64,000 nucleotides of DNA from an uncultured delta proteobacterium (GCA_963808235.1 CAWEEQ010000004.1:2144001-2208000); one strand, 5' to 3'. Shown: positions 1,466 to 12,134, counted from the first letter of the stretch. Notes: generated from the letters alone by a model not told the origin. Translations and numbers: made by a program.

Positions 1466-3145
1466 ATGAAATCTACGTCGCCGAGGAGCGTTTGGCGCTC
1501 CTTAAGCTTCGTTTTAGTCGTCGTAGCGGCCGTTTCGGTTTTTGCGCCGTCTTATGCCCTTGCGCAAGCCGGACCGACTGGACCCACGGGTCCCACTGGA
1601 CCCACAGGTCCGACTGGAGCCACGGGCCCGAGCGGGCCTCCGGGACCTACTGGACCGAAAGGCCAAACCGGACCTACCGGACCCACCGGACAGACCGGGA
1701 ACGCGGGCCCGACAGGACCTGGAGGAGCAACCGGAGCGAGCGGGCCGACCGGACAGACCGGACCGGCAGGACCTACTGGACCCAAAGGACTGACCGGACC
1801 GACCGGACCGACCGGGCAGACCGGACCGCAAGGCAAAAAGCTCACCTTCCAGGGATCGTGGTCGAGCACTCACCTCGATTCAGGTGCGAATCCCGATTAT
1901 GACTTCTTCGACGTCGTTGTGGCCGACAACGCCAGCGACGCCGCGACCAAGAACGGCTCCAGCTATGTCTGCACAGCCTTCCCTGTCTGTCCCGATACCG
2001 AAGATCCGACTATCAACACCGCCGGCGACTGGACCCTGATGGTGTCCGGTGGACCGGGCTTCGTCTTCAAGGGACCGTGGTCCGCGACCGCCTTCAACTT
2101 CAACGACGTGGTCAGCGAGAACGGCGATAGCTTTGTGTGCGTAAATCCCGCCGGCTGCACCGCTGCCGATGAGCCCAGCGTAGACCCGACCGATTGGAAC
2201 GTGATGGCGATCCAGGGCGCAACCGGACCGACCGGACCGACCGGCGACACCGGAGCTGCCGGACCTACTGGCGACACCGGGCCAACCGGACCGACTGGAG
2301 CGACCGGAGTAACGGGAGCAACCGGACCTACTGGCGACACCGGACCTACCGGACCGACTGGCGCAACTGGCGCCACCGGTGCGACCGGAGCGACCGGACC
2401 GACCGGCAACACCGGACCTGCCGGACCTACTGGAGCGACCGGGCCAACCGGACCGACCGGCAACACCGGCCCTGCGGGACCGACTGGAGCGACCGGGCCA
2501 ACTGGACCGACTGGTAACACCGGACCTGCCGGGCCGACCGGAGCGACCGGTCCTACTGGACCGACCGGCGCAACTGGACCTGCCGGACCTACCGGAGCGA
2601 CTGGGCCAACCGGACCTACCGGAGCGACCGGAGCCAGCGGACCGACCGGACCGACCGGACCTACCGGTGCTACTGGCGCAACCGGCCCGTCTGGACCGAC
2701 CGGGCCTACCGGACCGACTGGCGCGACTGGACCTGCTGGACCGACCGGGGCAACCGGCCCGAGCGGAACCGGAGTGAACTTCGTCCTGCTGAACAGCGGT
2801 GCCGCGAACGTCAGTACCGGTAGCTTCTTTAGCATTGGAGCAGCCGCTGGAGCCTCAGGGGAAGCGAACGTTGAGCAGGTCGTGGGCGTTGCCGCCACCT
2901 ACACCACGATGAAGTGCTTCCTGGCGGCAAATGAAGGAGCGACAACCACCGCTACTCTAACGATGCGCATAAATGGAGCCACTCCGGGCACGACGCTGAC
3001 CTGCGCTATCGGCGCTGGCACCAACACGTGTACCAACTCAGGGGGATCTCTGACCGTCGTTGCCGGCAACAGGATTGACGTCTTAGTCACAGTAGCTGGG
3101 GCGAACGGCGTGAATTTACCCATCAGCTGCGCGATCAGCCCGTAG
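1466..3145 (+). CDS. Secreted collagen-like protein 1 (Gly-X-Thr repeats, two internal Cys/Trp domains, Cys-containing C-terminal globular domain)
   Basis: Signal peptide ending ALA-Q; uninterrupted GPT/GAT/GQT triplets at about 1571-1834 and 2216-2773; tandem FxGxW...DVV...GxSYVC...C...DP...W domains. Confidence 0.93.
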
Positions 3146-3166
3146 AAGCGATGTAATCAATCGACC

Positions 3167-3193
3167 GGAGCGGCGGGCTCAACCCGCCGCTCC
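3167..3193 (+). other. Conserved GC-rich intergenic hairpin, copy 1
   Basis: GGAGCGGCGGG-CTCAA-CCCGCCGCTCC, 11-bp perfect stem, no U-tract. Confidence 0.8.
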
Positions 3194-3249
3194 ATGTCAG
3201 TCGGATTCAGGGAAGAGCAGGGAAGCGGAAGAGACCAGGAGTAATAAAA

Positions 3250-3609
3250 ATGCAACATTCAACCAGTGCGAGGCGCGCGCTGACAGCCATCCTGGCCGGA
3301 ACGGTCGTGCTGTTCTGTTCCGCCATCTCGTTCGCGGGCGTGCCGACCCTCGGATCCAATTGTGGTTCTGCCGGCGCGGCCGTCGCGGGTTCAGATTCGG
3401 CTGGCAAGATAACTCTGGGCATCGGCACCACCAACACCTGCACCCTCTCTTTTTCGGTGCCGTACCCCAACGCGCCCGCGTGCATGGCGACCAACGAAAC
3501 CGGTGGAACCGCGGTTGGGATCAGTACTACGCCGGCGGGCGCCGTGCTGAGCGGGCCTTATCCTTTCGCCGCCGGCAACGTGATCAGTTACATCTGTCAG
3601 GACTACTGA
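3250..3609 (+). CDS. Small secreted 4-Cys beta protein, collagen partner 1
   Basis: AGGAG RBS; signal peptide ending SFA; PTLGxx[30 protein letters not shown] and terminal ISYICQDY motifs shared with three paralogs. Confidence 0.88.
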
Positions 3610-3646
3610 CATTAAGGATTCGATAAGTTTGGTTCGGGGGTCCACA

Positions 3647-5328
3647 ATGAAATTCACGTCGCCACGGAGCTTTCTGCGCTCCTTAAGCTTCGTCCTGGCT
3701 GTTGTAGCGGCTGTGTCGGTACTGGCGCCGTCCTATGCGCTCGCGCAGGCTACCGGAGCCACTGGACCCACCGGCCCTACCGGTCCAACTGGACCCACCG
3801 GACCCCGCGGACCAACAGGTCCCACCGGAGCAACCGGACCGACTGGAGTAACCGGGCAGAAAGGACCCACTGGCCCGACCGGACCTACTGGAGCGACCGG
3901 GCCGACTGGACCGACCGGACTGCGGGGACCCTCGGGAGCGACCGGACCAACCGGTGCGACCGGACCGATCGGACTGGCCGGGCCGAAGGGACCGACCGGA
4001 GCGACTGGACCGAATGGACAAATTTTGAGCTTCCAGGGTTCGTGGATGAGCAGCCACGTCGACGGCGGCAGTCTCCCTCAGTACGATTTCTACGATGTAG
4101 TCGTAGCCGACAACAGCAGCGACGCTGCAACCAAAACCGGCTCCAGCTATGTCTGCGCGACCTTCGCCGGCTGTCCGACCAGCGAGGATCCGACCGTCGA
4201 CCACACCGACTGGGTCCTGATCGTAACCAGTGGACCGGGCTTTACGGTCAAGGGTTCGTGGCTGTCGAGCGTCAATTACAACTTCAACGATGTAGTCCTG
4301 GCCGATTCCGCCAGCAACGCGGCCACGATTACCGACTCAAGCTATGTGTGCGTGCAACCAATCGGCGGCTGTCCGGCCGGCGACGATCCGACCCTTAACC
4401 CCACCGATTGGAACGTGATGGGGGCCGGTGGCCCCTCAGGACCCACTGGGGCAACCGGATCGACCGGACCTACCGGCGCGACTGGCGCGACTGGCGCAGC
4501 CGGGATGACGGGAGCGAACGGAGTGGCCGGAGCTACCGGCGTGGCGGGATCGGCCGGAGCAAACGGAGCAAACGGAGTGACCGGAGCAAACGGTACGGCA
4601 GGGGCAACCGGACCGACTGGGCCTACCGGACCGACCGGAGCAACCGGAGCCACCGGACCTGCGGGTCCGACCGGAGCGACTGGACCTACTGGCGCGACTG
4701 GTACTGCCGGCCCTGCCGGCCCGACCGGGGCGACTGGACCTACTGGAGTAACCGGACAGACTGGCGCAGCCGGACCTACCGGCGCGACCGGACCTACTGG
4801 AGCAACTGGACAGACTGGCGCAGTCGGACGGACTGGTGCAACCGGACCAACCGGAGCAACTGGTCAGAGCGGGGTCTCGCCGACCGGAGCAACTGGACCG
4901 ACCGGAGCGACCGGACAAGCTGGCCCGACCGGACCGACCGGCCCAACCGGCGCAACCGGACCGGCCGGATCGGGCGGCGTGGACTTCATACTGTTTAACA
5001 GCGGTGGAGGCAACATCGGTGGCCCCAACTCATTCTTCAACATAGGCCATAGCGGCACCGAAGCGAACGTCGCGCAGGTTGTGCTCGACGCCGCCACCTA
5101 CACCACGATGAGGTGCTTCGCTAACGCCACCCTCACCGGCAATACGCTCACGATGCGACAATAAATTTGACGCACTCCGACCCCGACGTTGGCCTGCGCG
5201 TTCGCCGCCAGCACAACCTGCACAAGCGCGTCTGGATCTTTGACCGTGGCCGTCGGCGACACCGTTGACGTCGAGGTAACCTTCGGAAATCCGGGTCAAG
5301 TCCATCAGCTGCCAGCTCTCGGCCGTAG
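3647..5328 (+). CDS. Secreted collagen-like protein 2 (C-terminal domain broken by indels after about 5158; ORF as given stops at 5164)
   Basis: ATG at 3647 (MKFTSPRS, paralogous to collagen 1); same architecture; the downstream frame reads [36 protein letters not shown]...SISCQLS, matching the collagen 1 C-terminus, with TAG at 5326-5328. Confidence 0.85.
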
Positions 5329-11256: not shown

Positions 11257-11261
11257 GGTTA

Positions 11262-11291
11262 GGAGCGGCGGGCGGCTCCGCCCGCCGCTCC
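11262..11291 (+). other. Conserved GC-rich intergenic hairpin, copy 3
   Basis: GGAGCGGCGGGC-GGCTCC-GCCCGCCGCTCC, 12-bp stem. Confidence 0.8.
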
Positions 11292-11371
11292 GTGTCCACC
11301 GACAAGGACTTAGGCATCAGCCAGGCGTAATCAGTAGTTTCGAGGAACGAGGGGTAGCAGGAGCAATAAAC

Positions 11372-11728
11372 ATGAGACGATATTCATCAGGTACGAGGGG
11401 TTCGCTGACCGCCATACTGGCCGGAACGGTCGTGCTGTTCTGGTCGGCCTTCGCTTTCGCAGGCGTTCCAACCCTCGGATCCGATTGTGGCACCGGCGCG
11501 TCGATCGCGGGCTCCGACTCCGCGGGCAAGGTGACGTTGGGCGCAGGTCCGAGCACCTGCACACTCACGTTTTCGGTGCCGTACACTAATGCGCCCGCAT
11601 GTACGACAACCGACGAAACCAGCGGTCGGGGAGTCGGGCTCACTACCTCGTCTTCCGGGATCTTGCTAAACGGACCTTATCCCTTCAATGCCGGCGACGT
11701 GCTCGCTTACATTTGCGCGGAGTACTGA
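11372..11728 (+). CDS. Small secreted 4-Cys beta protein, collagen partner 3
   Basis: AGGAG RBS; close paralog of partner 1 ([35 protein letters not shown]). Confidence 0.88.
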   Translation: MRRYSSGTRGSLTAILAGTVVLFWSAFAFAGVPTLGSDCGTGASIAGSDSAGKVTLGAGPSTCTLTFSVPYTNAPACTTTDETSGRGVGLTTSSSGILLNGPYPFNAGDVLAYICAEY

Positions 11729-11762
11729 TCCCATGGGCGTTTTCCCGCGAGGAGCATCAATT

Positions 11763-12134
11763 ATGCGACATCGATCTTCGATGGCGACCGGCAAACTGAC
11801 CCTGCTGATGATGACGGCGGCGGCCGTGCTGATGCTGTCCGCCACCTCATTTGCGGGCACGCCGACGCTGGGCGCCGGCTGCGGCAGCGGCGCGACCGTC
11901 GCTGGCTCTGACACCGGTGGAAAGGTGACGCTCGGCACCGGCAACACGTACTGCATACTGACGTTTTCGGGGACGTATACTAATGCGCCGGCGTGCGTGG
12001 CGACCAACGAAACCAACGGCGGAGCGCATGCGATCGCGGTGGGGGTGAAGACCTCGACGACGCAACTGATGATAGATGCGGCGGCGCCATGGGCAGATGG
12101 CGACACGATCGCGTACGTCTGCTCGACCTACTGA
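11763..12134 (+). CDS. Small secreted 4-Cys beta protein, collagen partner 4
   Basis: GAGGAG RBS before ATG 11763; GTPTLGAGCG, GSDTGGKVTLG, YCILTFSGTYTNAPACV and IAYVCSTY motifs. Confidence 0.87.
   Translation: MRHRSSMATGKLTLLMMTAAAVLMLSATSFAGTPTLGAGCGSGATVAGSDTGGKVTLGTGNTYCILTFSGTYTNAPACVATNETNGGAHAIAVGVKTSTTQLMIDAAAPWADGDTIAYVCSTY

Follow-up and report, generated by a model that had tools for sequence, protein, structure and literature searches.

A candidate chromosomal operon family for exported collagen-like fibres and a fibre-tip-like accessory protein in an uncultured bacterium

Most of what is known of bacterial collagen-like proteins comes from Gram-positive pathogens, from spores and from prophages. 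In this study we describe chromosomal, exported, multi-copy collagen-like proteins from an uncultured soil lineage, found in a 64-kb window of DNA (64,000 nucleotides from an uncultured delta proteobacterium, GCA_963808235.1, CAWEEQ010000004.1:2144001-2208000; coordinates are counted from its first letter). Several described systems are close to this one. In T-even phages, a long fibre (gp37) carries a separate tip adhesin (gp38). The spore protein BclA lacks a signal peptide, and its N-terminal domain is what attaches it within the mother cell. It is described as a trimeric, collagen-like filament of Gly-X-Thr repeats that has a globular head at the C-terminus and is paired with a small all-beta partner, and its attachment requires trimeric BxpB (PMC10470788). 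Collagen-like tip fibrillae that are related to BclA/BxpB are described on the F-ENA and L-ENA spore appendages. Lcl from Legionella is a secreted Gram-negative collagen-like adhesin that has a signal sequence, a stalk of collagen repeats, and a C-terminal head that is trimeric and binds glycans (PMC11162425). EPclA/B from E. coli O157 prophages have a collagen stalk and a C-terminal trimerisation domain (PMC3368898).

We found three collagen-like open reading frames (ORFs; C1, C2 and C3) and four small secreted ORFs (S1 to S4) on the + strand of the window, which comes from a soil-type bacterium. As the original prediction had it, each collagen gene is followed by the same hairpin and then by a gene for a secreted paralog of 116-123 aa with four Cys (two such genes after C3). 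This arrangement was seen in the ORF calls and in a motif search. All seven proteins have a signal-peptide-like N-terminus, that is, positive charge and then a hydrophobic stretch, as judged by a custom script of regular expressions and hydropathy (not SignalP). The same script found no LPXTG motif, lipobox, PEP in the last 40 aa, or second hydrophobic stretch in any of the seven, in agreement with the earlier statement that LPXTG, PEP-CTERM, a transmembrane anchor and a lipobox are absent. The order of genes and the structured element between collagen and partner are fixed, and the unit is kept in three genomes. From these results we favour a picture in which the genes form a chromosomal operon family that encodes exported collagen-like fibres and an accessory protein resembling a fibre tip. 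We hold this picture with about as much doubt as belief.

This locus and BclA/BxpB each have a Gly-X-Thr collagen with a C-terminal domain and a small beta partner. In addition, the C-terminal domains of BclA and F-BclA are among the non-significant fold matches of the collagen C-terminal domain (C-domain) found here. The differences are several. All of the proteins here have Sec signals, and C1 and C2 pass from the signal peptide straight into Gly-X-Y repeats, with no N-terminal domain. The partner here is a 90-aa four-Cys domain of the fibre-tip type, whereas BxpB is an 11-strand jelly roll, and the related loci are labelled as deltaproteobacterial metagenome-assembled genomes (MAGs), not as spore formers. 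The analogy to BxpB that had been drawn for this locus holds at the functional level only, and the partner model instead resembles phage fibre-tip domains.

The other systems also differ from this locus. The NCBIfam model for Lcl (adhesin_Lcl, NF046116) gave 150 and 170.5 bits (cut-off 500) and matched the collagen part only. The collagens here lack both the DUF1566 head and the N-terminal helix, and their repeats are Gly-X-Thr, whereas those of Lcl are charged. The partner gene and the hairpin are present here, and neither is mentioned for Lcl in the available excerpts of PMC11162425. Phage collagen-like fibres (EPclA/B; PHROG 5073, 6320 and 819) also consist of a collagen stalk and a C-terminal domain, and the internal module of the collagens described here matches two phage tail-fibre families, phrog_5073 and phrog_9851 (E 8e-6 and 2e-5). 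In contrast to phage fibres, the proteins here carry signal peptides and are encoded outside a phage neighbourhood, in three paralogous cassettes in tandem, and neither the partner nor the C-domain matched a GenBank phage sequence. Streptococcal Scl1 and Scl2 are likewise surface collagen-like adhesins with a globular trimerisation domain, which in the Scl proteins is N-terminal. There is no LPXTG motif here, and the corresponding model (NF038329) gave 186.7 and 224.8 bits (cut-off 325). The locus would work like BclA/BxpB, Lcl or collagen-type phage fibres, yet lies outside each of these systems, because it has no LPXTG motif, family scores below threshold, signal peptides, and no phage or spore context. 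We regard it as a new form of the collagen-like proteins that bacteria have on the surface or in the matrix, joined to an undescribed domain family. We found no prior description of the collagen and partner pair in the open-access library that was searched.

The three collagens matched Pfam Collagen (PF01391) with E values of 9e-40, 3.4e-38 and 3.4e-63 for C1, C2 and C3, respectively (134.7, 129.6 and 209.7 bits; cut-off 27.2). ORFs, Pfam matches and alignments agree that they are paralogs with signal peptides, starting at 1466, 3647 and 8875, that share a Cys/Trp module and a C-terminal domain, and the original reading of exported collagen-like proteins with terminal globular domains stands. 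C1 (559 aa; 1466..3145) has a signal peptide, Gly-X-Y repeats (residues 36-125), two Cys/Trp modules (126-250), a second Gly-X-Y run (251-436) and the C-domain (437-559). C2 (505 aa as read; 3647..5164) has the same layout, and its frame stops within the C-terminal domain. In both, a Gly-X-Y run of 90 aa precedes two Cys/Trp modules of 50-67 aa, a run of ~186 aa, and a C-domain of ~123 aa. C3 (793 aa; 8875..11256) differs in having an extra two-Cys N-domain (33-80) after the signal peptide and an extra collagen run separating its two internal modules, such that there are three Gly-X-Y runs before the C-domain (676-793). The Gly-X-Y runs are 90-222 residues long and have Pro or Ala at X. Thr is at the Y position in 72 of 92 triplets in C1, 61 of 92 in C2, and 111 of 157 in C3. 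Thr is described as the commonest Y residue in bacterial collagens (PMC8968730).

Each collagen contains two copies of the Cys/Trp module. We aligned nine copies, including those from two related loci described below, and found 12 invariant columns. The match to CBM_5_12 (PF02839) was below threshold and in C1 only (E 0.004, 17.5 bits; cut-off 26.2). The nearest named Atlas cluster (score 0.89) is viral and has CBM_5_12 on 28% of its members, and a Bacillota cluster combining Collagen and CBM_5_12 scores 0.80; these are leads, not memberships. The module profile gave nothing usable against PDB sequences (one match at E 1.3). The internal modules are disulfide-capable and, at the strength of this weak match, CBM5/12-like.

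The C-domain, probably a beta domain, shows 45% identity between C1 and C3. We found no match to the C-domain in Pfam or PHROG, and its profile gave nothing usable against PDB sequences (one match at E 0.56). The nearest Atlas clusters (scores 0.94, 0.93 and 0.91) are unnamed and 56-74% viral. Searches for sequence homologs gave one match, and then eight in a second search that scored only the 8000 candidates sharing most words. Three of these few relatives (P0195-P0197) are collagens too, and the rest are non-collagen proteins. Four of the non-collagen relatives (P0198, P0199, P0202 and P0203), read by eye, are 400-700 aa long and have about three tandem C-domain-like modules with a motif like T-L-R-K-N-G ... 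G-D. These modules suggest a wider undescribed family of beta domains, possibly viral.

The partner proteins belong to a large family that has no name. S1 (119 aa; 3250..3609) combines a signal peptide with a four-Cys beta domain of 90 aa. S2 (116 aa; 5459..5809) and S3 (118 aa; 11372..11728) follow C2 and C3, and S4 (123 aa; 11763..12134) follows S3 in a frame that is open from 11688. The four are 52-66% identical and have four invariant Cys. No family in Pfam, NCBIfam or PHROG matched the partner above threshold. The sole sub-threshold match was that of S2 to Gp53-like_C (PF21882; E 0.009, 17 bits; cut-off 24.9). Close relatives are few: of 76 candidates, 45 proteins reached E<=1e-3. Almost all of these 45 are metagenomic, and none is named or has a Pfam domain. 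An exhaustive search gave 679 cluster representatives at E<=1e-3, 16 of them at E<=1e-10. We counted architectures in 149 newly listed relatives, of which 88 are longer than 200 aa. In 86 of these 88 listed matches, no more than 8 residues separate the end of the partner domain from the C-terminus, and 80 of the 88 have a hydrophobic N-terminus. No Pfam domain was found in 38 of 41 large relatives scanned. A PHROG family was matched by 10 of 30 large relatives scanned, and these were mostly tail-fibre, tail-spike and virion-structural families.

The predicted structure of the partner is confident (predicted local distance difference test, pLDDT, 95) and has seven strands. Against the PDB there was nothing significant; the best rows were Helix pomatia agglutinin (E 0.04), R-pyocin fibres (query TM-score, TMq, 0.51) and gp53 of phage AP22 (4mtm; E 0.17, TMq 0.35). 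The likeness to predicted viral structures (BFVD) was better than that to gp53: four rows had TMq 0.70-0.80 with a root-mean-square deviation of 2.4-3.3 Å, two of them at E<=1e-3, and several weaker rows bear the name tail fibre or receptor-binding protein. The partner profile had no matches among PDB sequences. Because its relatives carry the domain C-terminally and the model matches viral fibre-type structures, the partner is a stand-alone form of a C-terminal fibre-end domain. We also considered the partner and the collagen C-domain as related domains, and rejected this (hhalign probability 0.2).

Collagen and partner genes are separated by a conserved hairpin. Its arms, GAGCGGCGGG-N-CCCGCCGCTC, occur three times in the 64 kb, each time at the 3' end of a collagen gene, and in none of 100 shuffles. 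All three hairpins are on the + strand: the first at 3167..3193 (motif 3168-3192; 11-bp GC stem), the second at 5402..5430 (motif 5403-5429), and the third at 11262..11291 (motif 11263-11290; 13-bp GC stem). The stems have 11-13 perfect pairs and folding z-scores of -2.6 to -5.8. In an alignment of five sequences from close relatives, 96.8% of cells were paired and 2 of 13 pairs had changed on both sides, with compensatory G-C to A-U changes in the related loci; given so few and such close sequences, the support from covariation is modest. Rfam gave nothing at E<=0.1 for positions 1-13000. The hairpin begins 21 nt after the stop of C1 and 5 nt after that of C3. The distance is 238 nt for C2, because its stop lies early inside the C-domain. 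S1 ends 37 nt upstream of the C2 start with no hairpin in between, which makes it probable that C1-S1-C2-S2 is transcribed as a single unit. All three collagens share a 27-nt leader shortly before the start codon (1437-1463, 3618-3644 and 8841-8867), with 70% identity to the C1 copy. Upstream of C1, at 1395-1421, we noticed by eye the sequences TTGACA and GATAAT separated by 15 nt; a promoter scan made no call.

We looked for the partner in other genomes, scanning one genome per species, and four loci were returned (L001-L004). Two of these, L001 and L002, are the only ones with stand-alone partners, and both are MAGs labelled 'uncultured delta proteobacterium'. Both have the same order, in which a C3-type collagen gene is followed by the hairpin, by two partner genes, and by a convergent gene for a membrane protein of 1321-1330 aa. 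The second partner in each is the ortholog of S4. The collagen of L002 (5774-7907) is split into overlapping frames (5774-6811 and 6429-7907), likely by a frameshift inside the repeats that is possibly an assembly artefact. L003, an Elusimicrobia MAG, has a signal-peptide protein of 868 aa with repetitive fibre-like segments and the partner domain at its end. Within the same interval (4093-8252), this protein is preceded by ORFs of 175 aa (4093-4620) and 338 aa (4621-5637). L004 is a weak partner match in a Fictibacillus genome. In a quick tree of the partners, in which 34 of 62 inner branches were not resolved, S4 grouped with the second partners of L001 and L002 (SH-aLRT 99), S1, S2 and S3 were in one clade with metagenome relatives (support 99), and the first partners of L001 and L002 were in a separate clade (support 98).

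We propose the following mechanism. The collagens would trimerise from the C-terminal domain outside the cytoplasm, where conserved Cys pairs would form disulfides. Collagen Thr residues may be O-glycosylated, possibly by a neighbouring YfhO-like membrane protein that is conserved. This polytopic protein (1301 aa; 12128..16033, - strand) has a YfhO-like C-terminal region, is convergent on S4, and shares 74% identity with its counterpart at the corresponding place in L001. In streptococci, YfhO-family glycosyltransferases of the GT-C type are described as O-glycosylating extracytoplasmic Ser/Thr-rich regions (PMC11092751). The hairpin would be an attenuating or stabilising element that terminates or stabilises most collagen transcripts, and less partner would therefore be made. 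The partner would be an accessory tip or adaptor, probably glycan-binding, for a collagen fibre in the cell envelope or in an exopolysaccharide (EPS) matrix. Collagen and partner modules both look like phage-fibre parts and may have been taken over by the cell.

The system ties collagens to an uncharacterised 90-aa four-Cys domain, the one with 679 cluster representatives, that caps many secreted fibre-like proteins. If collagen and partner assemble, this would show the reuse of phage fibre modules for cell-surface or biofilm-matrix fibres and would give a first functional handle on this widespread domain. Even if they do not, the locus usefully adds a new case of Gly-X-Thr collagens that contain carbohydrate-binding-like inserts and lie beside an EPS cluster.

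Several results weigh against this picture, in whole or in part. One concerns C2. The original prediction needs a correction here: the C2 frame ends at a TAA (5162-5164) inside the C-terminal domain, and a TGA (5168-5170) lies two codons on. The rest of the domain (5165..5353, + strand) is degenerate. It resumes in the same frame at 5171-5350 (hidden Markov model E 2.6e-9), and its final motif is in a different frame after an 8-nt gap relative to C1. Because of the two in-frame stops and the frame change, C2 is a truncated paralog or a pseudogene, unless there is an assembly error at this place. A second result concerns the hairpins. Each of the three sites has a GC stem without a T run after it, so they do not look like intrinsic (Rho-independent) terminators, and a terminator scan called none. 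A third concerns the proposed head of the fibre. The AlphaFold model of the C-domain is poor (pLDDT 53.9). C1q, BclA and TNF-type trimers recur among its fold matches, and none is significant (best E 0.025, TMq ~0.3); a match to 3tyj, taken as a test of C1q/TNF likeness, had E 0.037 and TMq 0.31. Because confidence in the model is low, these matches are a lead only.

The proposed role of the YfhO-like protein is open to similar objections. The YfhO match is marginal (30.7 bits; cut-off 28.5) and covers profile positions 761-820 of 835, that is, ~60 C-terminal residues. The L001 ortholog scores 25.3 bits, below the same cut-off, and the match of the 1301-aa protein to PgfM1 is 28 bits (cut-off 1400). 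Furthermore, the gene lies directly downstream of a gene for an Ala-Thr-repeat protein, which is an alternative candidate substrate. There is also no outer-membrane export route evident in the window. Finally, the conserved cassettes represent few independent events: there are five of them, and the outside evidence comes from two loci of close relatives.

Direct docking of the partner on the collagen is a putative and rather doubtful part of the picture. The partners and collagens show no clean co-divergence. S1 is more similar to S3 (66% identity) than to S2 (58%), yet C1 resembles C2. A complex prediction with three copies of the C3 C-terminal construct and mature S3 gave a score of 0.00 and the verdict 'no answer'; it was run without controls and is uninformative either way. 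In addition, most of the partner family occurs without collagens. Gly-X-Y runs are absent from all 149 listed relatives, 61 of which are small proteins that stand alone. The strict pairing of collagen and partner in the original prediction holds only in this lineage, where the unit recurs in two other genomes; in 86 of the 88 larger relatives the domain ends secreted proteins that are not collagens.

In the best alternative, each partner is a lectin-like or adhesin protein secreted in its own right, expressed from the same operon as the collagen and not bound to it, with both being matrix components that are made along with the nearby exopolysaccharide. We consider this somewhat unlikely, though it is the strongest competitor. 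The wide occurrence of the domain without collagens, the weak fold likeness to lectins and fibre feet (the agglutinin and R-pyocin rows above) and the EPS locus 13 kb away speak for it. However, the cassette has been duplicated three times as a unit, the order of collagen, hairpin and partner has been retained in L001 and L002, and the domain is physically joined to a fibre in 86 of the 88 larger relatives.

It is less probable that the partner is an assembly factor or a basal anchor rather than a tip, that is, a periplasmic trimerisation chaperone like those for phage tail fibres, or a BxpB-like attachment point. Genes for phage fibre chaperones sit directly downstream of the fibre gene, as the partner genes do here, and the lower partner dose suggested by the hairpin is consistent with this role, as is the dependence of BclA attachment on trimeric BxpB (PMC10470788). 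On the other hand, the partner model matches fibre-end domains and no chaperone family, the partner has no match in PHROG, and C1 and C2 have no N-terminal domain past the signal peptide for a BxpB-like contact.

There is also a more specific form of the accessory-tip picture. The locus might encode a two-part Gram-negative extracellular fibre made from domesticated phage tail-fibre parts, with a glycosylated Gly-X-Thr stalk, a C1q-like head that docks a separately secreted tip, a binding specificity given to each collagen by a different tip paralog, a tip dose set by the hairpin, and a dedicated outward-facing GT-C enzyme. We hold this fuller form to be improbable. If true, the fibre would represent a new class of appendages at the surface or in the matrix.

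A remnant of a prophage or tailocin, with collagen-like tail fibres and downstream tip or assembly genes, is very improbable: whole collagens do match tail-fibre PHROGs (E down to 1e-117, mostly via the collagen repeats), the internal module and the partner fold match phage proteins, and collagen-like side-tail proteins are known from E. coli O157 prophages (PMC3368898), but all seven proteins have signal peptides, the Pfam scan of ORFs across the 64 kb found no phage-type family, a tblastn search of 50,697 GenBank phage records with the partner and the C-domain gave no match, the chromosomal neighbourhood is kept in three genomes, and the GC content at third codon positions in the partner genes (0.73-0.74) equals that of the neighbouring genes.

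Two other genes lie between cassettes 2 and 3. One encodes a sulfatase-superfamily protein (606 aa; 6290..8110, + strand; Pfam Sulfatase at residues 225-508). Its matches to LtaS, YejM and phosphoethanolamine transferases are far below the cut-offs, and it is absent from the examined part of L002. The other, upstream of C3, encodes a hydrophobic protein (162 aa; 8121..8609, + strand) with no family match; a homolog that is 41% identical is upstream of the L002 collagen. Just upstream of C1, at 303-1042 on the - strand, are genes for a lasso-peptide B2 (transglutaminase-like) protein and a PqqD-family chaperone. There is no convincing precursor ORF in 1043-1465, and a possible cyclase gene runs off the start of the window.

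The Ala-Thr-repeat protein is encoded by a 1071-aa ORF (16167-19382, - strand), directly upstream of the YfhO-like gene and on the same strand, with long Ala-Thr repeats and Kelch motifs. It could be a further substrate for glycosylation of Thr. Its first ~350 residues are rich in Asp, Cys, Asn and Arg and resemble an out-of-frame reading of the repeat, which leaves the start or the frame in doubt.

The EPS locus downstream (24951-60158) is of the Wzx/Wzy type. It has genes for glycosyltransferases, Poly_export, a Wzc-like protein, Wzy_C, a sulfotransferase, a priming transferase, an MBOAT protein and a flippase. There were weak sub-threshold matches to PEP-CTERM-system proteins in the window, to TIGR03016 at 31922-33157 and to a PrsT-like tetratricopeptide-repeat (TPR) protein at 22759-23922. 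The EPS locus also contains genes for several methyltransferases, a radical SAM/B12 enzyme and a GDSL protein.

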